Source of the DNA: an uncultured archaeon
Lineage (GTDB): Archaea; Asgardarchaeota; Thorarchaeia; Thorarchaeales; Thorarchaeaceae
Assembly: GCA_964473825.1 (NCBI GenBank)
Contig: CAYYQL010000018.1
Location: forward strand, 1 to 14,521
Reading direction: 5' to 3'
Length of the DNA: 14,521 nt
Shown here piece by piece: positions 116 through 11,277 of this stretch. The notes under the pieces are model-generated. The model did not search any database. It worked only from the letters and a program-made list of their open reading frames with translations, and was not told where the DNA came from. Every line of letters begins with the position of its first letter. The first letter of the stretch is position 1. A program made the position numbers and the translations under genes.

Positions 116-1663
116 ATGTCCCATGATGAATTTGATTTTCTCAGAGAGAAACGAGAGGAAGCCAAGCTTGGAGGTGGCGAGAAGCGCATTCAGCGTGAAC
201 ATGAACGCGGCCGCCTGACCGCACGAGAACGGATTGACCGTCTCTTCGACGCAGATTCATTTGTTGAGATTGATGAGTTTGTGGTCCATCGGGAATCCAA
301 CTTCGGCATGGAAGACAAGAAAATCCTTGGAGAGGGCGTGATAACTGGTTACGGGAAAATCAACGGACGGAAAGTCTTCATCTTCAGCCAGGACTTCACG
401 GTCTTTGGTGGCTCTCTCTCCGAGATGTACGGTGCAAAGATTGTGAAGATAATGGACTTGGCAATGGAGGCAGGTGCTCCTGTCATTGGTCTGAATTCGG
501 GCGCAGGTGCCCGAGTACAAGAGGGAATCAAAAGCCTCGTGGCCTATTGTGACATTTTCAGACGCAATACCCATGCTAGTGGAGTAATACCTCAGATTTC
601 AGCCATCATGGGTCCGTGTGCGGGAGGAGCGGTCTACAGCCCGGCTGTCACCGATTTCACACTCATGGTGAAGGAGACCTCACACATGTTCATCACCGGT
701 CCTGATGTAATCGAAACCGTGACTGGTGAGAAGGTGACTTTTGAAGAGCTCGGAGGCGCCATGACCCATGCCTCGCGCAGCGGCGTGGCACACTTTGCGT
801 CCGAAGATGAAGACCACTGCTTCGAACAGGTCAAACGTTTGCTCAGCTACATTCCAGACAACAACATGTCGGACCCTCCACGAGTGGATACGGGGCATCT
901 TCCAGATGACTATGACGAAGCAATCGATGAGGTTGTACCCAGCGACCCAAACAGACCGTATGATATGCGTGATGTCGTGACCAAGCTCGCTGACAACGGT
1001 GAGTTCTTCGAGGTTCATGAGCACTGGGCAAGGAATATGCTGGTGGGATTCGCTCGGTTCGATGGACGCTCGGTGGGCATCGTAGGGAACAACCCCGCCC
1101 ATCTTGCCGGAACCTTGGACATCAATGCCTCCGACAAATGCGCACGATTTGTTCGCTTCTGTGATGCGTTCAACATTCCCATCCTCACATTCATGGATGT
1201 ACCTGGGTATCTTCCTGGTTCAGAACAAGAATGGGGCGGCATCATACGTCATGGAGCAAAGATTCTGTATGCCTATGCTGAAGCGACTGTCCCTCTGATC
1301 ACCATCATCACTCGGAAAGGTTATGGTGGCGCCTACGACGTCATGTCTTCTCGCCATATCGGCGCAGATCTTGTTTTCGCTTGGCCGGGTGCCGAAATTG
1401 CTGTGATGGGGCCTCAGGGAGCCTGCAATATCATATTCAGGAAGGAGATTGCTGCGGCAGACGACCCCGAGGCTAAGCGTGCTGAACTTGTTGAGGAATA
1501 CCGAGAAAAATTCGCAAATCCCTATGTGGCTGCAGGTCTCGGGTACATAGACAAAGTCATCTTCCCACATGAGACTCGTCTAATGATATGCAAGGGCTTG
1601 GACGTATTGGCTACAAAGCGGCAGAGTCGTCCAGCAAAGAAGCATGGAAACATTCCACTTTAG
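116..1663 (+). CDS. pccB: Acyl-CoA carboxyltransferase (propionyl-CoA carboxylase beta / methylmalonyl-CoA carboxyltransferase 12S / MmdA family), 515 aa
   Basis: Family motifs GRLTARERI, QDFTVFGGS, GARVQEG, GPCAGGAVYSPA, FVRFCDAFNIP, DVPGYLPG, GGAYDVM and C-terminal KKHGNIPL. SD-like GAGGT at 102-106. Confidence 0.95.
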   Translation: MSHDEFDFLREKREEAKLGGGEKRIQREHERGRLTARERIDRLFDADSFVEIDEFVVHRESNFGMEDKKILGEGVITGYGKINGRKVFIFSQDFTVFGGSLSEMYGAKIVKIMDLAMEAGAPVIGLNSGAGARVQEGIKSLVAYCDIFRRNTHASGVIPQISAIMGPCAGGAVYSPAVTDFTLMVKETSHMFITGPDVIETVTGEKVTFEELGGAMTHASRSGVAHFASEDEDHCFEQVKRLLSYIPDNNMSDPPRVDTGHLPDDYDEAIDEVVPSDPNRPYDMRDVVTKLADNGEFFEVHEHWARNMLVGFARFDGRSVGIVGNNPAHLAGTLDINASDKCARFVRFCDAFNIPILTFMDVPGYLPGSEQEWGGIIRHGAKILYAYAEATVPLITIITRKGYGGAYDVMSSRHIGADLVFAWPGAEIAVMGPQGACNIIFRKEIAAADDPEAKRAELVEEYREKFANPYVAAGLGYIDKVIFPHETRLMICKGLDVLATKRQSRPAKKHGNIPL

Positions 1664-1915
1664 AGACCGCTCAGTGCAGATTGAACGACCCATGACACTA
1701 GTTGTGGTACGTTATTACAACGGCAGCTAAGTGACTCTCTAAGCCCTAGAAACTATCAGATTGATGGTTCTTTCTGAAGGCATTAGATTGTCAGATGCTT
1801 AGAACACGTGTTCCAATCTAACCGATTGGTCATCTGAATGTTTGCAAGATGACAAGAATCCAGCAGAAACTAGGCTCTGAGGCTTAACTAGGCTATGGAT
1901 TCATCATACATTCAT

Positions 1916-1923
1916 CTTAAAAG
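1916..1923 (+). promoter_or_regulatory. Putative archaeal TATA box for the 1956 gene
   Basis: CTTAAAAG about 33 nt upstream of ATG 1956. Positional inference only. Confidence 0.35.
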
Positions 1924-1955
1924 GCTCAGAACTGATTTTAACTATAGTGATAGCT

Positions 1956-3305
1956 ATGCGCGCCAAGAAAATGCAACTCATGGCCCTATGGGCCGCTCTG
2001 ATGCTCGTGATGCCTTTCGCGTACCTCCCTCTGGGCACTGCCTATGAGCCAGGTGACGAGGCTGAGGTATTCGGGCACACATTTGCTGAGGAATACTGGA
2101 CTAACGACTCCATCAATGTACAGACAGGTAATGGAAATGCAAGTTTCACCGCTTCGTATGTACACGTTGATGAGTTCTCTGCATTCCTCATCGCTTTCAA
2201 CAGAATAGTGACAAACGACAGCACTGAGATCATTCTGCCCTACCAGCTCTTCGGCATGAACTACAAGACCCCTCAGAACAAGGAGGTCTTCATCGGCTCG
2301 ATCTTTGCTTTCTTCCTGGTCCACAACGAGACCTTCGGGGACAACAATCTTCCGGATGTAGGAAATGAGGATGCCTGGTATATCGTGCCGATGTCGACGG
2401 GCAATCCATGGGGAGATGTAACTCCAGACGTTGAAGCAATACCCGTTGAGAAGATGGGTGAGGGTCACTACAGATTCGGGATGCGATACACCAACATGAG
2501 CGCAAGGGTTGTGTCTGCCCAGGGTGGCTTCTGGCTCAGCCTTCTGCTCCCGTTCATGACTGTGCTGTTCAGCGAGATAGTAATTGAATATGACATCCAG
2601 ATAGATCAGACAACGGGCGAAGTACATGCTGAGACCGTCTACACCATAGGGCAGGTCGAGCGAGTTCGGATGGGCTTTCAGGACAAAGATCCGTCGGAGG
2701 TCATCACCGAGACCATGGCGATAAGCGCGGTTCATTATCTCTCAACCTTTGAGAGCAACTACAACGTGACCCGCAGCTCCAATGGGAACAAGATTACTCC
2801 TCCGACTAGTACACAATTGCTGGATGACAACCTGACCATAACGATTGGTGATGATCAGGAGCGGGCATTTGATATCGGTCTGGGCCGAGAATACGATCTC
2901 ATAAACGAAACAAGCGGAATCACAGTCTTAGAGGGTGTTAATGCTCTGAACGCTCTGCTGGCTATGAATCCCGGAGACTTCCTCCTCATAGCATGGCAAG
3001 CACCCCTGTCTGCATTCCTCTTTGCTCACATGGCCTATGGACTATCTGCTCAGGTCAGGAATACGTACAATAGTCCACAGCATCTTGTGAACAACGCACA
3101 GACCGCATTTCATAGTAGTCAATGGTGGTACTCGGTGAGCTTTCCGGAGTGGAATGGTCTGAGAATTCAACAGGATCCTGTGTACGTCGCGTACACCAAT
3201 CTGGCAGAAGGTGCTCCAGTTCCTAGCGACGGCGGTGGACTTCTGTTGCTCGCAATCGGCATTGTGGCGGTTGTGGCAATCTTCTGGGTCATCAAGCGTA
3301 GATAG
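1956..3305 (+). CDS. Secreted, C-terminally membrane-anchored surface glycoprotein of unknown function (about 449 aa; alternative GTG start at 1947)
   Basis: N-terminal signal peptide (RAKK followed by a hydrophobic stretch). Eight N-X-S/T sequons. Beta-rich acidic body. C-terminal TM helix LLLLAIGIVAVVAIFWVI followed by KRR. Confidence 0.85.
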   Translation: MRAKKMQLMALWAALMLVMPFAYLPLGTAYEPGDEAEVFGHTFAEEYWTNDSINVQTGNGNASFTASYVHVDEFSAFLIAFNRIVTNDSTEIILPYQLFGMNYKTPQNKEVFIGSIFAFFLVHNETFGDNNLPDVGNEDAWYIVPMSTGNPWGDVTPDVEAIPVEKMGEGHYRFGMRYTNMSARVVSAQGGFWLSLLLPFMTVLFSEIVIEYDIQIDQTTGEVHAETVYTIGQVERVRMGFQDKDPSEVITETMAISAVHYLSTFESNYNVTRSSNGNKITPPTSTQLLDDNLTITIGDDQERAFDIGLGREYDLINETSGITVLEGVNALNALLAMNPGDFLLIAWQAPLSAFLFAHMAYGLSAQVRNTYNSPQHLVNNAQTAFHSSQWWYSVSFPEWNGLRIQQDPVYVAYTNLAEGAPVPSDGGGLLLLAIGIVAVVAIFWVIKRR

Positions 3306-3319
3306 ACTCAAACTCTGTG

Positions 3320-3369
3320 CTCGAGCCCCATATCAGGGGTTCGAGACCCCCCCTCTTCTTTTTTTCTTT
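3320..3369 (+). terminator. Hairpin plus pyrimidine/T-tract terminator
   Basis: CTCGAGCCCC (3320-3329) pairs with GGGGTTCGAG (3336-3345), 10 bp with one G-U. A CCCTCTTCTTTTTTTCTTT tract follows. The stem starts 15 nt after the stop at 3305. Confidence 0.7.
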
Positions 3370-3550
3370 GCAACCAGAGCTTGCGAATCTTGCGCCAGCG
3401 GTTGCTGGAAGAATACACCCTCTTACACCAGGTGCTCACACGAGAAGGCGGCACAAGGGCCTGCTATGGTGGCGCTGTTTCAATGCTTCTGAGAGTTCAT
3501 CGTAGTAGACTCCAAATACTGAAGATACAAAATGCGAGTAGGTGTTCGCG

Positions 3551-3814
3551 ATGGTGAAATACGAGGGACGTGGGCTATCAACAGACGACCCCATAGTCAT
3601 ATCTAATGTAATCGGTCACACAGAAGCCATCGAGGCAGAATATTCGTATCTCTCCCGTAAGTATGGAGTGAAGGGCACTGACTGGAATCTCGTGCGTCAG
3701 GCACTGCTGAGTATCGATGATCGCTGGATCGACCAGATGGACATCAGTCTTGCAGATGGAACGGAGGTCGTGCTCTATTTCGACATCACCAAGTACTGGG
3801 GAAAGTTCGAATAG
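3551..3814 (+). CDS. Small hypothetical protein (87 aa; GTG 3542 is an alternative start)
   Basis: Protein-like pattern G-x-S-x-D-D-P-I-V-I...AEY-x-YL...YG...W...Q-x-L...D...YFDIT-x-YWGK, which resembles a widespread uncharacterised small domain (from recall). SD-like AGGTG at 3540-3544. Confidence 0.75.
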   Translation: MVKYEGRGLSTDDPIVISNVIGHTEAIEAEYSYLSRKYGVKGTDWNLVRQALLSIDDRWIDQMDISLADGTEVVLYFDITKYWGKFE

Positions 3815-3861
3815 GGGTCTCGCCATGTTAGGAGGGATGCTTCTGCATCATAGACAGATGC

Positions 3862-3897
3862 TATTATATTGCAAGATGTGACATGACCCGCGGGTCA
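3862..3897 (+). promoter_or_regulatory. TATA box plus perfect 14-bp palindrome (candidate operator) for the carboxyltransferase-BCCP-thiolase operon
   Basis: TATTATATT at 3862-3870. TGACCCGCGGGTCA at 3884-3897, ending 2 nt before ATG 3900. No clear SD, consistent with a short-leader or leaderless transcript. Confidence 0.55.
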
Positions 3898-3899
3898 CA

Positions 3900-5417
3900 A
3901 TGACAAGGCTGCAGATTACAGACACAGTCCTCAGAGATGCACATCAGTCCCTTCTCGCGACAAGAATGAAGACAGAACATATGCTGCCAATCTGTGAGAA
4001 GCTTGACCAGGTTGGTTACTGGTCCCTCGAGATGTTCGGAGGCGCCACCTTCGATTCCATGATGCGCTTTCTGGATGAGAACCCTTGGGAGCGGCTTGAG
4101 GTTCTGCGCGAAGCCCTTCCAAACACCCGTCTACAGATGCTTCTTCGGGCACAGAATGTCGTGGGCTACCGTCACTATGCCGATGATGTTGTTGAGGCCT
4201 TTGTTCATCATGCTGCAGATGGGGGTATTGATGTCTTCCGGATCTTTGACGCTTTGAATGACATCAGGAACATGAAACATGCAATCAAGTGTGTGAAGAA
4301 TGAGAGTGCTCATGTCCAAGCCAGTATCAGTTATACACTCAGTCCAGTACACACACTTGAGAAGTTTGTTGAGAAGTCTGCTGAACTGGCGTCATTGGGA
4401 GCAGACTCAATCTGCATCAAAGACATGGCGGGTTTGATTTCTCCGAGTGCGGCATATGATCTCGTGAAGATGCTGAAGGACGACATTGGACTTCCAGTGC
4501 AGCTCCATTCTCACTACACCAGTGGGATGGCGTCGATGGCCTACATGAAGGCGGCCGAGGCTGGTGTAGATGTTGTGGACTGCGCAATCTCCTCACTCTC
4601 ACTTGCTACTTCCCAACCTGCAACTGAGTCTATTGTTGAGGCCTTGAGAAACACGCCGCGAGATACAGGTCTGGATATGGCTCTGCTTGCTGAGATTGCA
4701 GACTACTTCCGGGAGATTCGTGGTAAGTACGCCGGTTTTGAAGGAAGCCTCAAGGGCGTGAATCCTCAGGTTCTGCGATTCCAGATTCCAGGAGGTATGC
4801 TCTCGAATCTAGACAACCAATTGAGGGAACAAGGTGCACTCGACAAATATGATGAGGTACTGAAGGAGGTTCCCAGAGTCCGTGCAGAACTCGGCTATCC
4901 TCCACTGGTGACCCCGTCAAGCCAGATTGTGGGAACTCAAGCCACTCTCAATGTCATCACTGGAGAACGCTATCAGATGATTCCGCACGAGGTCAAGCAG
5001 TACATCAGAGGCCACTACGGTCGCCCGCCAGCTGAGATTGACCCCGAAGTCAAGAAGAAGGCAATTGGCGATGAGGAACCGCTCGATTGCAGACCTGCTG
5101 ATTTACTAGAGCCAGAACTCCCCAAGGCAAGGGAGGCTCTGAAGGACATCCCTCATGAAGAACGCGACCTTGTGAGCTATGCACTGTTTCCCCAATACGC
5201 ACTTGATTTCTTGAAACGCAAGGCGGAGAAGAAGCTCAGAGGAGAAATGACTCTGGAACATGAGGTGGCCATCATCTCAGCTGTACTTCATATGAAACAC
5301 CAGGTTGCTTCTGCAGGCATTCATGACCAGCAAGGCTACAGCGTTGGACGCTGGGGTCGTAGTAGTTCAGCATGGACCATGGCTGGGCGAATGGAGCTCA
5401 TGCGAGGCGGAATATAG
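3900..5417 (+). CDS. oadA: Pyruvate/oxaloacetate carboxyltransferase (OadA / PycB / transcarboxylase 5S family), 505 aa, no fused biotinyl domain
   Basis: RDAHQS, GGATFD, FRIFDALND, IKDMAG (carbamylated Lys), HSH metal ligands, IPGGMLSNL and GYPPLVTPSSQIVG. No EAMKM motif. Confidence 0.93.
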   Translation: MTRLQITDTVLRDAHQSLLATRMKTEHMLPICEKLDQVGYWSLEMFGGATFDSMMRFLDENPWERLEVLREALPNTRLQMLLRAQNVVGYRHYADDVVEAFVHHAADGGIDVFRIFDALNDIRNMKHAIKCVKNESAHVQASISYTLSPVHTLEKFVEKSAELASLGADSICIKDMAGLISPSAAYDLVKMLKDDIGLPVQLHSHYTSGMASMAYMKAAEAGVDVVDCAISSLSLATSQPATESIVEALRNTPRDTGLDMALLAEIADYFREIRGKYAGFEGSLKGVNPQVLRFQIPGGMLSNLDNQLREQGALDKYDEVLKEVPRVRAELGYPPLVTPSSQIVGTQATLNVITGERYQMIPHEVKQYIRGHYGRPPAEIDPEVKKKAIGDEEPLDCRPADLLEPELPKAREALKDIPHEERDLVSYALFPQYALDFLKRKAEKKLRGEMTLEHEVAIISAVLHMKHQVASAGIHDQQGYSVGRWGRSSSAWTMAGRMELMRGGI

Positions 5418-5430
5418 GAGGCACAAGGAG

Positions 5431-5964
5431 ATGTCACAGCAGTACAACGTAAGCATCGACGGCAAGAACCTTGAAGTAAGTATTCAGAGACTCGATGAGG
5501 GAGGTGTCTTGGTCGTCAAGGTCGGAGATCAGAGCTTCACAGTCACCACTCAACCACCCGATGAAGATGAGGCATGGACAGTCAACGAACGCGACTCGAA
5601 ACATCAGGTCAGACTCTTGAACCGTTCGGGACACACCTACGATCTCGAGTTTGATGGGACAAAACGAGCAGTTGAATTCACTCGCGTGAGAAAGGCAACT
5701 ACCCCCACGGCTGATGCACCATCCACAAGCGGTAACGGAGCAGATCGACTACCTGGCGGAGTTTATCCACCTATGCCGGGGAAGATCACTGAGGTTCATG
5801 TTTCGGTGGGCGACAATGTGAGTAGTGGCGACACACTGTGCATCCTTGAGGCCATGAAGATGTTCAACGAGCTCAAGGCCACCAAAGATGGCGTAGTAAA
5901 GGACGTGAACGTACAAGAGGGTTCATCTGTCACTCCCAGTGACCTAGTCATATTGATTGAGTGA
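5431..5964 (+). CDS. Stand-alone biotin carboxyl carrier protein (177 aa)
   Basis: PMPGKI...LEAMKM with the biotinylated Lys (codon 5857-5859) 35 residues from the C-terminus. A Thr/Pro/Ala/Ser linker precedes the domain. GGAGG at 5417-5421 supports ATG 5431 over the track's 5305 start, which overlaps the upstream gene. Confidence 0.93.
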   Translation: MSQQYNVSIDGKNLEVSIQRLDEGGVLVVKVGDQSFTVTTQPPDEDEAWTVNERDSKHQVRLLNRSGHTYDLEFDGTKRAVEFTRVRKATTPTADAPSTSGNGADRLPGGVYPPMPGKITEVHVSVGDNVSSGDTLCILEAMKMFNELKATKDGVVKDVNVQEGSSVTPSDLVILIE

Positions 5965-5979
5965 CGGAGGTATCTCCTG

Positions 5980-7146
5980 ATGGAACCGGTCTACGTGATT
6001 GGGGTCGGCATGACTCCATTTGGAGTTCTGAAGGAGTCGATCCTTGAGCTTGCGGTCTCGGCCGCAGTGGAGGCCGTCAAAGATGCTAGAGCAGAGGATG
6101 TACCTTTTGACAGGTTGTTTGTGGGAACCCAGAATCCTGATGAGTTCACACAGATTGGCCATCTATCCACTCTTCTTGCGGACCATATCGGCATCGTACC
6201 TGCTGCAGCAACACGTGTTGAGAGCGGCCCCTCCTCTGGGTCCAGCGCCTTCGAGGCAGGTTTCGCATCGATTTCTTCTGGGATGTCTGAGTCAGCCGTT
6301 ATCATTGGCGTCGAGAAGATGTCTCAGGTTGGTCGAGCAGAGGCATCAGGCATACTTGCCAAGATGATGTCCTACGAGAATGAAATTCGATACGGCGGGA
6401 CACCTGCAGCATTAGCCGCTCTTGTTGCCAGAAGGTACATGCACGACTATCGTCTAAAACGGGAGGAACTCTCTCTTGTCCCGGTCAAGGCACATAGGAA
6501 CGGTGCGAAGAATCCTCTCGCTCACTTTCAGAAGGAGGTCTCGGTGGAGAAGGTGAACAGTGCCCGACTCGTTGCTGATCCACTAACGCTATACGACTGC
6601 TGCCCGACAAGTGATGGATCAGCTGCTGTCGTGTTGGCCTCTGAGCGGCTTGTCAAACAGCTTGACCTCAAGGACCTAGCAGTGAGAATACTGGGTATCG
6701 GACATGCCACGGACTACCACTCGATCCAGCACAGGCTTTCCTTGACTTCAATGAACGCTACGGTGGTAGCCGCGCAACGCGCATTTGCCATGGCAGGTCT
6801 GGAGCCTGCTTCCATAGATGTCTGTGAGTTGCATGATGCCTTCTCTATACTAGAACTCATTGATATGGAGGACATAGGGATAGTGCACCCGGGGCATGCT
6901 ATCGAGGCTGTCAAGGATGGCAAGACTGAGGTTTCAGGTGACATGCCTGTGAATCCTACTGGAGGTCTCAAGGCACGGGGGCATCCCACGGGCGCAACTG
7001 GCGTGGCCCAGATTCGAGATATCGTTCTGCAACTGCAGGATAGGGCTCCCAAGGGTCTCCAAGTAGAGTCCCCCACTGCGGGTCTAACGCACAACATCGG
7101 CGGATTTGGAAACAATATGGTGGTGTGTATTCTGCAGGCCCCCTAG
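5980..7146 (+). CDS. Thiolase-family (SCP2/archaeal-type) protein lacking the nucleophilic Cys, 388 aa
   Basis: VIGVGMTPFG, GVEKM, NPLAHF, DCCPTSDGSAA, ELHDAF, VNPTGGLKARGHPTGATG and HNIGG. ESGPSSG sits where E-x-x-C-A-S-G is expected. SD GGAGGT at 5966-5971. Confidence 0.92.
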   Translation: MEPVYVIGVGMTPFGVLKESILELAVSAAVEAVKDARAEDVPFDRLFVGTQNPDEFTQIGHLSTLLADHIGIVPAAATRVESGPSSGSSAFEAGFASISSGMSESAVIIGVEKMSQVGRAEASGILAKMMSYENEIRYGGTPAALAALVARRYMHDYRLKREELSLVPVKAHRNGAKNPLAHFQKEVSVEKVNSARLVADPLTLYDCCPTSDGSAAVVLASERLVKQLDLKDLAVRILGIGHATDYHSIQHRLSLTSMNATVVAAQRAFAMAGLEPASIDVCELHDAFSILELIDMEDIGIVHPGHAIEAVKDGKTEVSGDMPVNPTGGLKARGHPTGATGVAQIRDIVLQLQDRAPKGLQVESPTAGLTHNIGGFGNNMVVCILQAP

Positions 7147-7228: not shown

Positions 7229-8185
7229 ATGATTGCTTACGGTCCTGTTCCTTCAAGGCGTCTGGGAAGAAGCCTTGGGATAAACAACATCAGCGCGAAG
7301 TCTTGTTCTTACTCATGCACCTACTGCCAGTTGGGGCGAACCACTGATCTGACAGTACAGCAGAGGTCGTTCTACTCTCCTGAGCGGATTTTGGATGAAG
7401 TGACACAGCAGGTCAGCAATGCCAAGCACAACAATGAGAGAATTGACTATCTCACATTCGTCCCTGATGGTGAGCCAACCCTCGATCTGAATCTGGGAGA
7501 TACTGCTGCTTTGCTGAAGGATTTCGAGATACCCATTGCAATTCTGACTAATGCATCACTTCTCTGGGATGCCGATGTGCGAACTCGTCTAGATCATATG
7601 GATCTTGTTTCGATCAAAGTTGACGCTGTGAGTTCCAAACTCTGGCATCATGTTAACAGGCCTCATGGCTCTTTGGCCCTTGAAAGAGTAATGGACGGAA
7701 TCCGCAGGTTCTGCGAAGAGTACGAAGGTAAGATACTCTCAGAGACAATGCTGGTCAATACGGCTAATTACGAGGGTGAGTTCGGAAGGATTGCATGTTT
7801 CTTGAGCGAGCTGGGCATCGAAAAGGCGTTTATCGGGATTCCCACAAGACCTCCCGCCGAAGACGGAGTGTGTCCTCCCACGGAGTCGGTGATAAACAGG
7901 GCCTTCCAGAGTTTCGTTGATGAGCTTGGAAGCGACCGTGTAGAATACCTTATCGGCTACGAAGGAAATGAGTTTGCCTCAACTGGAAACCCCAGAGCGG
8001 ACTTGCTCAGTATCACCTCAGTCCATCCGATGCGTGAAGATGCAGTTCGAGAACTGCTGGCCAACTCCGAGTCCGATTGGACCATTGTTCATCGTCTGAT
8101 TGATGATAGACAGCTTGTGGAACTTGAATATGGGGGATCATCATATTACATGCGTGCATTGCCGGGTAGGGTTACTGGGCTCTGA
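7229..8185 (+). CDS. Radical SAM protein (COG0731/TYW1-related uncharacterised family), 318 aa
   Basis: CSYSCTYC (CxxxCxxC), N-terminal YGPVPSRRLGRSLGIN, GEPTL, LTNASL and a C-terminal HPMREDAV small helical domain. Confidence 0.9.
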   Translation: MIAYGPVPSRRLGRSLGINNISAKSCSYSCTYCQLGRTTDLTVQQRSFYSPERILDEVTQQVSNAKHNNERIDYLTFVPDGEPTLDLNLGDTAALLKDFEIPIAILTNASLLWDADVRTRLDHMDLVSIKVDAVSSKLWHHVNRPHGSLALERVMDGIRRFCEEYEGKILSETMLVNTANYEGEFGRIACFLSELGIEKAFIGIPTRPPAEDGVCPPTESVINRAFQSFVDELGSDRVEYLIGYEGNEFASTGNPRADLLSITSVHPMREDAVRELLANSESDWTIVHRLIDDRQLVELEYGGSSYYMRALPGRVTGL

Positions 8186-8216: not shown

Positions 8217-8609
8217 CTACCTCACCCATCCGATGGCTCCTTGAGGGCATACTTGCGCGCATGAACCGCAGCCAGAGCACTTGGATTGATTAACATGCGC
8301 TTTTCCTTCCGAGATATCTATCGCGTCTTGTGGACAGGCATCAATACAAGCTCCACATCCTACACAGAGTACTGCGTCAACCCTTACCATCTTGGATCTC
8401 GGGAATCTACGGTGCTGGGGCGTCAGACTGCTGTCAGGTATTCTCTGGGTGCCTATCTTCTCTATACTAGGAGAAAACACACTCGGACTGCATGTTTCTC
8501 TTGCTCTCCAATTCTGTTGCAGACATCCGCGTGGTGAATGTTTCCCTTTACCTCGTCTGCTCCTCTTTCTTCTCGTTGTGGACAACTCACGGACAGATGT
8601 TGTAATCAT
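8217..8609 (-). CDS. 2[4Fe-4S] dicluster ferredoxin. Core domain is 8217-8390 (57 aa); the start could be 8390, 8585 (TTG) or 8609.
   Basis: Two CxxCxxCxxxCP motifs: CVGCGACIDACP and CSGCGSCAQVCP. Confidence 0.85.
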   Translation of the reverse strand: MITTSVRELSTTRRKRSRRGKGKHSPRGCLQQNWRARETCSPSVFSPSIEKIGTQRIPDSSLTPQHRRFPRSKMVRVDAVLCVGCGACIDACPQDAIDISEGKAHVNQSKCSGCGSCAQVCPQGAIGWVR

Positions 8610-9738: not shown

Positions 9739-10113
9739 CACAGTTTTGAGTTTCATGGATTATCTACACCTCTTGAACCCATGGTCATGGCCTATCTCTG
9801 CGTCACACCGATGTGCTGGTTTACAGTATTAGCGGTAGAATAAGAGGGCTCACAGGGAATATGATGGCATTCTTGCCTGTCTGATAGATATCTTCGCCTT
9901 CTTTGTAGAGTATGTCTGAGGTTTTCTTATTAGAAACTGAATGCGAAAAGAACAGAGTGAGTTCAGATAGACCCGGGACTAGACGAGTGTCGCATCACGT
10001 GCAGCAGGACCGGGCACTCAATCTCGAGGCCCTGGGACCAATCAGAAACTTTGGTTACTGAATGGAATACATGGTTCTGGTATCTGGACAATCGAGCAAG
10101 GAGACGATTATTG

Positions 10114-11277
10114 ATGCCCGAAGGATTGGCCGTACTGAAATGGGATGACGAGCTCGGGCCCGTTGTGACTTCTAAGACACCCAAAAGTCTACAGCTGGGG
10201 CTCGACCCGACTACAAGCATGCGTATCTACGGGATTGCGACGCTGGGAGAAACCGAGGAGTCACAGAAACCAGGCTTCACCTCTCTATCTTTTGATGAGT
10301 TCAAACTGGCCGTGTACTACGGGGGACTAAACATGCATCTGAAAGGAAAACCCTCTATGGTATTCCTAGTACTGGCCCCTGAAGAGGACCCTGATGTATA
10401 CAAGGATGCACTCCCTGAGATCGCCACGCAGATTTTCTTGAACACCGATGATGACGCATATCAGAAGCTTGTTCCGAAGTTCTATGGACAGATAGCACGA
10501 TACACTCAGATGACCCCTGAGCAGAGGCAGGCATCTGTTCTCAGCGACACCGTGAGGCGGTCTATTCTGCAGACATTGATGAGGAATGGAACCATCGAGT
10601 CATCTGATTTAGAACAGATAATCTTCGAGGAAGTAGGGAAGAAGATCGATGTAGACATAGTTCTGCGCCCGCTTGTGAAGATGGGAATCATTGCTACTGG
10701 TTGGGTTGAGGGTCTCGCGACCGAAGTCATCTATCTCACCCGTGCCCTGTTTCTTCTGCGAACCATATCGCAGGACACTATACGCGCTGTGAAGGCGGGA
10801 CAGCTGCCCAAGGATGTCGCAGAGCAGTATCTCGACTCTGCAAAGAGATACCATAAGAATTACCTCGGGACGCTTCGAAAGGATCTCTCAGAGGCACTAT
10901 GGGACGATGCAGAACAACTCACGGAGTACTTGTTAGATTTCGATGCTTATGATATCCTCGAGATTCTGCGTGAAGGCCCGCAGCAGACAGAACACCTGCC
11001 GAGTCTCCTTGATGTGACCAAGTCACAGCTAAGAAAGCAGGTGAAAAAGCTGGAGAAGGCCAATATCGTCATGCGCATCAACGACGAAGAGGGCCGAGAG
11101 CACTTACTTCTGAAGTCAAACCCCGAGGTAATGACCGTGTATCCCGAATGGCTCATTCAGAGAACGGTCGAGCTCTACAACGATGAAGAGATACCAAGCC
11201 GACAGGCCATGCACTATCTTGAGGTGCTGAAGAGATTTCATCCAAGCGGTGTGGCCGCAACAATGGAGGTGCAGTGA
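10114..11277 (+). CDS. Cytosolic protein: N-terminal uDENN/longin-like domain plus two winged-helix domains (387 aa; TTG 10111 is an alternative start)
   Basis: AAGGAG at 10098-10103 favours 10111/10114 over 10051. LAVLKWDDELGPVV hairpin motif with a longin-like secondary-structure pattern. wHTH-like segments DTVRRSILQTL...VLRPLVKMGII and DAYDILEILREGP...QLRKQVKKLEKANIV. Confidence 0.8.
   Translation: MPEGLAVLKWDDELGPVVTSKTPKSLQLGLDPTTSMRIYGIATLGETEESQKPGFTSLSFDEFKLAVYYGGLNMHLKGKPSMVFLVLAPEEDPDVYKDALPEIATQIFLNTDDDAYQKLVPKFYGQIARYTQMTPEQRQASVLSDTVRRSILQTLMRNGTIESSDLEQIIFEEVGKKIDVDIVLRPLVKMGIIATGWVEGLATEVIYLTRALFLLRTISQDTIRAVKAGQLPKDVAEQYLDSAKRYHKNYLGTLRKDLSEALWDDAEQLTEYLLDFDAYDILEILREGPQQTEHLPSLLDVTKSQLRKQVKKLEKANIVMRINDEEGREHLLLKSNPEVMTVYPEWLIQRTVELYNDEEIPSRQAMHYLEVLKRFHPSGVAATMEVQ

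Follow-up and report, generated by a model that had tools for sequence, protein, structure and literature searches.

The first 14.5 kb (14,521 nt; hereafter the window) of the 45.5-kb contig C18 of an uncultured archaeon of the class Thorarchaeia (GenBank assembly GCA_964473825.1, contig CAYYQL010000018.1; genome of 3.27 Mb in 103 contigs, 95.7% complete) encodes an acyl-CoA carboxyltransferase (CT), a keto-acid carboxyltransferase of the 5S type (5S-like subunit) and a separate biotin carboxyl carrier protein (BCCP), which, judging from their sequences and genomic setting, probably make up a soluble, ATP-independent, biotin-dependent transcarboxylase. The prediction is carried by the absence of biotin carboxylase and of the membrane-bound β subunit OadB/MmdB from searches of the genome and its class, the invariance of the catalytic residues, the linkage of the genes and the presence of a methylmalonyl-CoA pathway in the same genome. 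The three components had been recognised in an earlier note made from the letters of this DNA alone, and Pfam searches place each of them where the note had put it, with the start of the carrier refined. The nearest public records are Thorarchaeota metagenome-assembled genomes (MAGs), the 5S-like protein being 95% identical to that of TEKIR_12S and 97% to that of a congener. The genes on which the argument rests, together with their conserved neighbour, are:

116–1663, plus strand: CT of the 12S/PccB/MmdA family, 515 aa (PF01039, 665.9 bits, E 4e-200).
3863–3899, plus strand: putative promoter/operator of the 5S–BCCP–thiolase-like operon, read directly from the sequence.
3900–5417, plus strand: keto-acid (pyruvate/oxaloacetate) carboxyltransferase of the OadA/PycB/5S type, 505 aa (HMGL-like and PYC_OADA domains, no Biotin_lipoyl).
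5247–5417, plus strand: tail at the C-terminus of the 5S-like subunit; helix (E..AAI.AA.L), then S.W..AGR..(L/M)M motif.
5431–5964, plus strand: BCCP, 177 aa (Biotin_lipoyl 68.5 bits, PCC_BT 26.7 bits).
5980–7146, plus strand: thiolase-fold protein (Thiolase_N/C_1 matches).

The 515-, 505-, 177- and 388-aa products match called genes exactly. The 5S-like, BCCP and thiolase-like genes are read as one operon, because they are separated by gaps of only 13 nt (5S to BCCP) and 15 nt (BCCP to thiolase-like), carry GGAGG motifs before the internal starts and are preceded by a TATA-like element (ATTATATT, 3863–3870) about 30 nt upstream of the 5S start. A perfect palindrome (TGTGAC-N11-GTCACA) abutting the 5S start codon is a candidate operator. 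The CT gene is not contiguous with this operon, as a 452-aa surface protein and a 90-aa open reading frame (ORF) lie in between. Across Thorarchaeia, the order is CT, an interval of 0 to 26 kb, 5S, BCCP and the thiolase-like gene; in most Thorarchaeal genomes, CT, 5S and BCCP are neighbours or share a contig, and in one genus they directly adjoin one another.

Domain searches of the window ORFs bear out the claim of the earlier note that no biotin carboxylase and no OadB/MmdB-type subunit lies in the window, since no other ORF was found to be a biotin carboxylase or an OAD_beta protein. The genome-wide search that the note had proposed gave the same result: neither Biotin_carb_C (PF02785) nor Biotin_carb_N (PF00289) was found in the genome (the ATP-grasp domain shared with other enzymes was not searched), nor was OAD_beta (PF03977), while a single PYC_OADA gene is present and the CT is the only Carboxyl_trans gene. 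Within the class, Biotin_carb_C was detected in none of 81 Thorarchaeia genomes (single-contig records and genomes of up to 99% completeness among them); for OAD_beta, the 81 genomes yielded no more than a 61-aa fragment and a sub-threshold match, neither of them in the 24 high-quality genomes. The PYC_OADA domain of the 5S-like subunit occurs in 67 of the 81 (23 of the 24 high-quality genomes) and Carboxyl_trans in 70 (22 of the 24). The same Biotin_carb_C search was positive in 13 of 14 control genomes as well as in 43 of 151 Asgard genomes (a sample of the phylum spanning 23 families), and is therefore able to detect the enzyme in this phylum. Given the class-wide absence and the detection elsewhere in the phylum, an assembly gap cannot explain the pattern.

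At the level of the phylum, the 5S-like gene was found in only four of the 23 families (here designated f1, f12, f13 and f16). The 37 genomes of f1, the seven of f12 and the three of f13 yielded no biotin carboxylase; f16 carries both genes, and biotin carboxylase also occurs in 11 other families (mainly f5, f19 and f14). The 5S-like gene and biotin carboxylase are thus almost mutually exclusive among the Asgard families sampled. If biotin carboxylase is lacking, carboxybiotin can arise only from the two transferase half-reactions, and if OadB is lacking, no known catalyst is available for its decarboxylation. The gene content of the genome, together with the class-wide pattern, hence supports the ATP-independent shuttling of carboxyl groups that the earlier note had predicted.

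The CT matches PccB best among PDB structures (1xnv, 704 bits; 12S, 1on3, 594 bits), and scores 833.7 bits against TIGR01117 (mmdA), below the cut-off of 998.8. Its oxyanion glycines (G170/G171 and G404/G405) are invariant in the orthologue alignment. Codon 1337–1339 encodes D408 in the motif GGAYDVM; an ungapped alignment (query 1–79 to PccB 382–460) places it on D422 of Streptomyces coelicolor PccB, in agreement with the earlier note. The PccB residue at this position reportedly favours propionyl-CoA. The aspartate is kept in families f1, f13 and f16, with valine in f12; the position is occupied by leucine in the 12S subunit of Propionibacterium freudenreichii subsp. shermanii, by isoleucine in the T. 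maritima homologue 1vrg and by isoleucine or leucine in clostridial MmdA-type CTs. These alignments mark Asp at 408 as a signature of the β subunit of propionyl-CoA carboxylase (PCC) and as no feature of 12S. Replacement of the CT allele, considered in view of the lower identity of the CT (83%, versus 95% for 5S) to TEKIR_12S, was rejected in favour of ordinary divergence, as a closer congener shows 92% for the CT and 97% for 5S.

In the 5S-like subunit, residues R12, D13, Q16, R83, K174, H203, H205 and T338 are invariant across the alignment. We take the RDAHQS, KDMAG, HxH and VTPxSQ motifs to represent the metal-binding, carbamyl-lysine and catalytic positions (an assignment made by motif and not by structural superposition). 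The protein exceeds the cut-off of the domain-level model NF006761 (757.6 bits versus 402) and falls below those for oadA (TIGR01108), PRK12331 and the 5S equivalog NF008984 (581.5 bits versus 827); among PDB structures, PycB ranks first (5ks8, 579 bits), followed by OadA (2nx9, 523) and 5S (1rqb, 484). The representative of its cluster is named ‘oxaloacetate decarboxylase alpha subunit’ in IMG. The trio had been likened to the 12S/5S/1.3S composition of the Propionibacterium enzyme; the likeness holds for composition and fails for orthology, in view of the NF008984 score, the PDB ranks and the BT-domain carrier described below.

The C-terminal tail of the 5S-like subunit is conserved in all four Asgard families that carry the gene and also occurs in bacterial CT-5S-BCCP operons, while it is absent from the OadB-linked homologues of Chloroflexota and Mahella. 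A similar tail is present in 5S-like genes of Methanomassiliicoccales, which were compared apart from their gene context. Searches of Pfam and the PDB (E<=10 in each) turned up neither ACC_epsilon nor OAD_gamma nor anything else of meaning for the tail, and profile searches lend no support to an ‘epsilon/OadG-like’ reading, even though the motif is conserved. The tail is proposed to be an assembly element.

The carrier ORF spans 5305–5964; alignment of orthologues and an exactly matching gene call place the real start at ATG 5431, giving 177 aa. An N-terminal BT-like β domain (residues ~3–87, nt 5437–5691) is followed by a linker and the biotinyl domain, in which the biotinylation motif EAMKM is invariant (K143, nt 5857–5859). 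Residues 3–87 match PCC_BT at 26.7 bits (Pfam cut-off 23.5), and residues 95–175 align with positions 533–613 of 5ks8. By these alignments, the carrier equals the C-terminal part of a PycB/OadA chain and is no minimal 1.3S. An AlphaFold2 model gives pLDDT >90 for the biotinyl domain and an all-β N-terminal domain of eight strands at low confidence (pLDDT 40–55). There are three Biotin_lipoyl matches in the genome, of which the carrier is the only biotinyl protein; the other two (ORFs of 427 and 141 aa) are, judged by size alone, presumably lipoyl proteins (E2-like and GcvH-like). The biotin ligase BirA is encoded on contig C9.

In the proposed mechanism, BirA would biotinylate K143 of the carrier, the PccB-like CT would transfer the carboxyl group of (S)-methylmalonyl-CoA to the carrier biotin, yielding propionyl-CoA, and the OadA/PycB-type subunit would pass it from carboxybiotin to pyruvate, yielding oxaloacetate, the reverse also being possible. 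Assembly, in which the N-terminal peptide of 1.3S serves the Propionibacterium enzyme, may here fall to the BT-like carrier domain together with the 5S-like tail. We infer that the helix of the tail and the barrel of the carrier may form a split BT-like domain tethering the two transferases.

The substrates proposed for such an enzyme find a setting elsewhere in the genome. A minus-strand operon on contig C9, a few kb from birA, encodes a B12-binding subunit, MeaB, methylmalonyl-CoA mutase and methylmalonyl-CoA epimerase, with two CoA-transferase subunits nearby and a second methylmalonyl-CoA mutase about 15 kb further along the contig; the mutases and epimerase sought at the suggestion of the earlier note are therefore present. 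The large subunit of the second mutase (571 aa; G000:C9:20001-31606, L090) lies near an FAD_binding_4 oxidoreductase and an HdrD-like protein with CCG/Fer4 domains, and may be a mutase of isobutyryl-CoA or of another acyl-CoA. Genes for SucCD and for three FrdA/SdhA-type flavoproteins lie elsewhere in the genome; GTP-dependent phosphoenolpyruvate carboxykinase (GTP-PEPCK) and malic enzyme are present, and archaeal phosphoenolpyruvate carboxylase is absent from the genome. A methylmalonyl-CoA pathway would result in which the transcarboxylase connects the mutase/MeaB/epimerase operon, succinyl-CoA synthetase, the CoA-transferases and a flavoprotein of the fumarate-reductase type, and the gene set fits a succinate/methylmalonyl-CoA/propionyl-CoA route closed by this enzyme. 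A propionate-forming electron sink of the Wood-Werkman type is slightly preferred over the reverse, that is, the disposal of propionyl-CoA from the breakdown of amino acids or odd-chain fatty acids.

The thiolase-fold protein had been included in the pathway by the earlier note. Its gene always follows BCCP and forms a fourth, conserved part of the operon that is peculiar to Thorarchaeia; the clusters of f12 and f13 (the two other Asgard families mapped in full) lack it. The protein keeps the HDAF and GHP motifs and carries Pro84 (nt 6229–6231) where the nucleophilic cysteine of the E-x-x-C-A-S-G loop is expected (ESGPSSG versus EAACASG in the archaeal thiolases 7yvy and 6esq), and all eight Thorarchaeal copies that were compared (that of the window and seven orthologues) have this proline. 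Since proline replaces the nucleophile, the protein is not a thiolase and cannot perform thiolysis via an acyl-enzyme. Its role may be that of a scaffold or of an enzyme that carries out no thiolysis. Its PDB matches include the thiolase-fold aldolase Ltp2 (6ok1), a similarity that serves as a lead, not a finding.

Among relatives, the order CT-5S-BCCP is found in f12 and f13 and, with the tail, in Anaerolineae, one Dehalococcoidia bacterium and one MAG labelled Deltaproteobacteria. Chloroflexota also have 5S-BCCP-OadB operons, Clostridia have CT-BCCP-OadB-5S or CT-BCCP-5S, and other bacteria have a fused PycB with biotin carboxylase (BC); the closest bacterial homologues of the CT itself lie mostly in CT-BC-BCCP operons. 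Trees against characterised enzymes had been suggested in the earlier note; those built, for the 5S catalytic domain, are unrooted and contain no characterised 12S, 5S, OadA or PycB, in whose stead PDB bit scores place the CT nearest PccB and the 5S-like subunit nearest PycB. In these trees, the Thorarchaeal clade is fully supported and groups with f12, f16 and tail-bearing Anaerolineae (SH-aLRT 88), f13 stands apart with Methanomassiliicoccales and PycB-type proteins (95), and the deep nodes are weakly supported. The module is thus common to Asgard archaea and Chloroflexota; the trees do not support a single Asgard origin, and no donor or direction of transfer is claimed.

Several observations weigh against a methylmalonyl-CoA:pyruvate transcarboxylase. 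Among structures, PccB, PycB and OadA outscore 12S and 5S as matches of the two transferases, neither transferase reaches an NCBIfam equivalog cut-off (5S, oadA or mmdA), and the aspartate at position 408 is missing from the 12S subunit of the established enzyme. The CT gene lies 2.2 kb from the 5S operon, behind unrelated genes, and is on another contig in a congener. Two Chloroflexota proteins from OadB-linked operons of the Na+-pump type fall in the same weakly supported set (SH-aLRT 88) as Thorarchaeal 5S. The transcarboxylase would not be the sole route to oxaloacetate, as GTP-PEPCK and malic enzyme form further links between C3 and C4 compounds, and the direction of flux cannot be read from genes.

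Among the alternatives, the one that survives best, though still unlikely, is a transcarboxylase with another main substrate pair, for example malonyl-CoA/acetyl-CoA with pyruvate, or a pair with a different 2-oxoacid such as 2-oxoglutarate. The Propionibacterium transcarboxylase also accepts acetyl-CoA/malonyl-CoA, the 2-oxoglutarate carboxylase of Hydrogenobacter uses PycB-like subunits, f12 has valine in place of aspartate at the specificity position, and the conserved neighbour of thiolase fold without the cysteine hints at a different acyl-CoA chemistry. Nevertheless, D408 corresponds to the residue of PccB that favours propionyl-CoA, the complete set of mutase, MeaB and epimerase would supply or consume methylmalonyl-CoA, and the residues of the pyruvate site are invariant.

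A decarboxylase of methylmalonyl-CoA and/or oxaloacetate, working with an unrecognised membrane subunit or as a soluble enzyme that conserves no energy, is distinctly improbable. The IMG name of the cluster representative of the 5S-like subunit, the many CT-BCCP-OadB-5S operons of Clostridia and the position in the unrooted trees of the two Chloroflexota OadA-BCCP-OadB proteins would suit such an enzyme, as would the membrane-anchored protein encoded between the CT and 5S genes in the window. In Oad and Mmd enzymes, however, the decarboxylation of carboxybiotin is catalysed by the β subunit, and OAD_beta is absent from the genome and all but absent from the class (the fragment and the sub-threshold match given above). 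The anchored protein (1947–3305) was rejected as an OadB: it has a signal-like N-terminus, one C-terminal transmembrane anchor, no Pfam match and no similarity to OadB, and among the loci compared it is restricted to two congeners and truncated in one of them. Furthermore, the cluster has no membrane protein that is kept from genus to genus.

An ATP-dependent propionyl-/acetyl-CoA carboxylase or two-subunit pyruvate carboxylase, with a biotin carboxylase encoded elsewhere or missed, is close to refuted and retains hardly any probability: the resemblance of the CT to PCC β (with the PccB aspartate), the CT-BC-BCCP operons of most of its nearest bacterial homologues and the similarity of the 5S-like protein to PycB 5ks8 would accord with it, yet Biotin_carb_N and Biotin_carb_C were not found in the genome (a search that left aside the shared ATP-grasp domain), and the latter is missing from all 81 Thorarchaeia genomes while being detected in nearly all controls and in 43 Asgard genomes.

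We know of no characterised archaeal transcarboxylase; the closest functional parallel to the predicted Thorarchaeal enzyme is the transcarboxylase of Propionibacterium freudenreichii subsp. shermanii (EC 2.1.3.1; 12S/5S/1.3S). Both have an acyl-CoA carboxyltransferase, a metal-dependent TIM-barrel keto-acid carboxyltransferase devoid of biotin and a separate carrier, both lack biotin carboxylase and a membrane subunit, and in both a mutase/epimerase pathway stands alongside. The subunits, however, are not orthologous: the Thorarchaeal CT has aspartate where 12S has leucine, the 5S-like subunit (unlike 5S) bears a conserved tail without known relative, and the carrier has a BT-like domain of ~95 aa where 1.3S (123 aa) has a short N-terminal peptide. 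The Na+-translocating OadABG/MmdABCD enzymes possess homologous α-type carboxyltransferases and a carrier, and their Chloroflexota form likewise splits the carboxyltransferase domain from a BT-containing biotin protein; they differ in the pump subunit OadB/MmdB, found neither in this genome nor credibly in the class, and the extended tail is missing from the OadB-linked homologues. Two-subunit pyruvate carboxylase (PycA/PycB; Methylobacillus flagellatus 5ks8, methanogens) provides the best match of the keto-acid subunit, the 5S-like subunit and the carrier covering PycB 1–463 and 533–613, respectively. PycB is said to hold a BT-like domain between its carboxyltransferase and BCCP domains. In the Thorarchaeon, PycA is missing, the chain is split into two genes and a second carboxyltransferase, of the acyl-CoA type, stands in place of PycA. 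Similarly, S. coelicolor PccB is the best match of the CT, with the D422-equivalent aspartate and the oxyanion glycines conserved, whereas the biotin carboxylase/BCCP α subunit of propionyl-CoA carboxylase is represented by the BT-like and BCCP parts only (as a 177-aa protein), and the partner is a keto-acid carboxyltransferase.

Taken together, these comparisons allow a wider and more tentative proposal, which we regard as possible although doubtful as a whole. The arrangement of a CT, a tailed 5S-like subunit and a BT-domain carrier might represent a transcarboxylase architecture in its own right that is laterally mobile (Asgard archaea, Chloroflexota and, for the tail alone, Methanomassiliicoccales) and that arose from a split OadA/PycB chain and a PCC-type β subunit, independently of the Propionibacterium enzyme. 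The tail (helix and S.W..AGR) and the BT-like barrel might act as the glue, and in Thorarchaeia the cysteine-less thiolase-fold protein might have been recruited as a fourth component, for example as an enzyme of the aldolase or decarboxylase type that supplies or removes propionyl-/methylmalonyl-CoA.

The remaining features of the window concern the surroundings of these genes:

1947–3305, plus strand: surface-anchored protein, 452 aa; signal-like N-terminus, single C-terminal transmembrane anchor, no Pfam family, many N-x-S/T sequons.
3542–3814, plus strand: ORF of 90 aa between the CT and the 5S-like gene.
7229–8185, plus strand: radical-SAM protein; best NCBIfam match the viperin family, weak (40.9 bits versus a cut-off of 180).
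8217–8609, minus strand: ferredoxin gene.
10051–11277, plus strand: helix-turn-helix (HTH) protein, 408 aa, with a C-terminal ArsR/HTH_20 domain.
Further plus-strand genes of the window: a membrane protein and a large surface protein.

Among the loci compared, the genes at 1947–3305 and 3542–3814 occur only in the two congeners and are regarded as unrelated cargo between CT and 5S. In one congener locus (L004, G055:C14), the surface-protein gene is truncated to residues 182–452, the CT lies on another contig, and a 719-aa ORF with a Cas12f1-like TNB (TnpB-type) domain is found upstream of the 5S operon (4440–6599), a layout that suggests rearrangement associated with an insertion sequence. In many Thorarchaeal genomes, the complete CT gene is followed by partial copies of its 3′ part (G014:C10, with L100/L101; G015:C209; G066:C100; G044:C63; G072:C36; G012:C67; and loci L115, L118, L123 and L131), and the CT-5S distance varies over the range given above; in G014, AbiEi/AbiEii and Fic genes occupy the DNA between CT and 5S. 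The 3′ end of the CT looks like a hot spot of integration or rearrangement, with no integrase identified; from the 3′ end of the CT to the 5S gene of the window, direct repeats of the attachment-site type were found at chance level only.

Downstream of the operon, the HTH protein has an orthologue in four loci from other genera of Thorarchaeia (L094, L102, L103 and L105, those where it was detected), each time as the next gene after the thiolase-like one, which makes this protein a candidate regulator of the operon. In the window, the radical-SAM gene, the ferredoxin gene and the membrane-protein gene are inserted between the two. L004, the only congener locus to reach into this region, likewise has the radical-SAM gene after the thiolase-like gene.

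The idea of an Asgard transcarboxylase is already published. Propionate metabolism was called in Asgard archaea from an ‘MmdA’-type CT, a BCCP and a ‘pyruvate carboxylase’ subunit, in the propionate-forming, electron-sink direction, and a ‘transcarboxylase biotin carboxyl carrier protein’ and a ‘transcarboxylase-associated biotin ligase’ were named (Imachi et al., 2020; Nature 577:519, PMC7015854). While the trait was described there as conserved across Asgard archaea, the 5S-like gene is found here in four of 23 families, almost exactly those that lack biotin carboxylase. The present analysis adds the tallies for class and phylum, the finding that biotin carboxylase and the 5S-like gene are distributed in a nearly complementary way, the tail/BT architecture in common with bacterial operons and the conserved loss of the thiolase cysteine. 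Caution is warranted in calling the system ‘ancestral to Asgard’, since its distribution is patchy and nearly the mirror image of that of biotin carboxylase, and Asgard and Chloroflexota sequences are interleaved on a weakly resolved tree.

The default annotations ‘oxaloacetate decarboxylase alpha’ and ‘methylmalonyl-CoA decarboxylase alpha’ need correcting for these genes. As the BT-domain carrier, the tailed 5S-like subunit and the PCC-type CT differ from the textbook enzyme, a structure would show a second way of assembling such a complex. If the prediction is true, the only biotin-dependent reaction of Thorarchaeia would cost no ATP and would join pyruvate/oxaloacetate to the B12-dependent methylmalonyl-CoA pathway, which bears on the production or consumption of propionate and the disposal of reducing equivalents in sediment archaea, as well as on metabolic models of eukaryogenesis.

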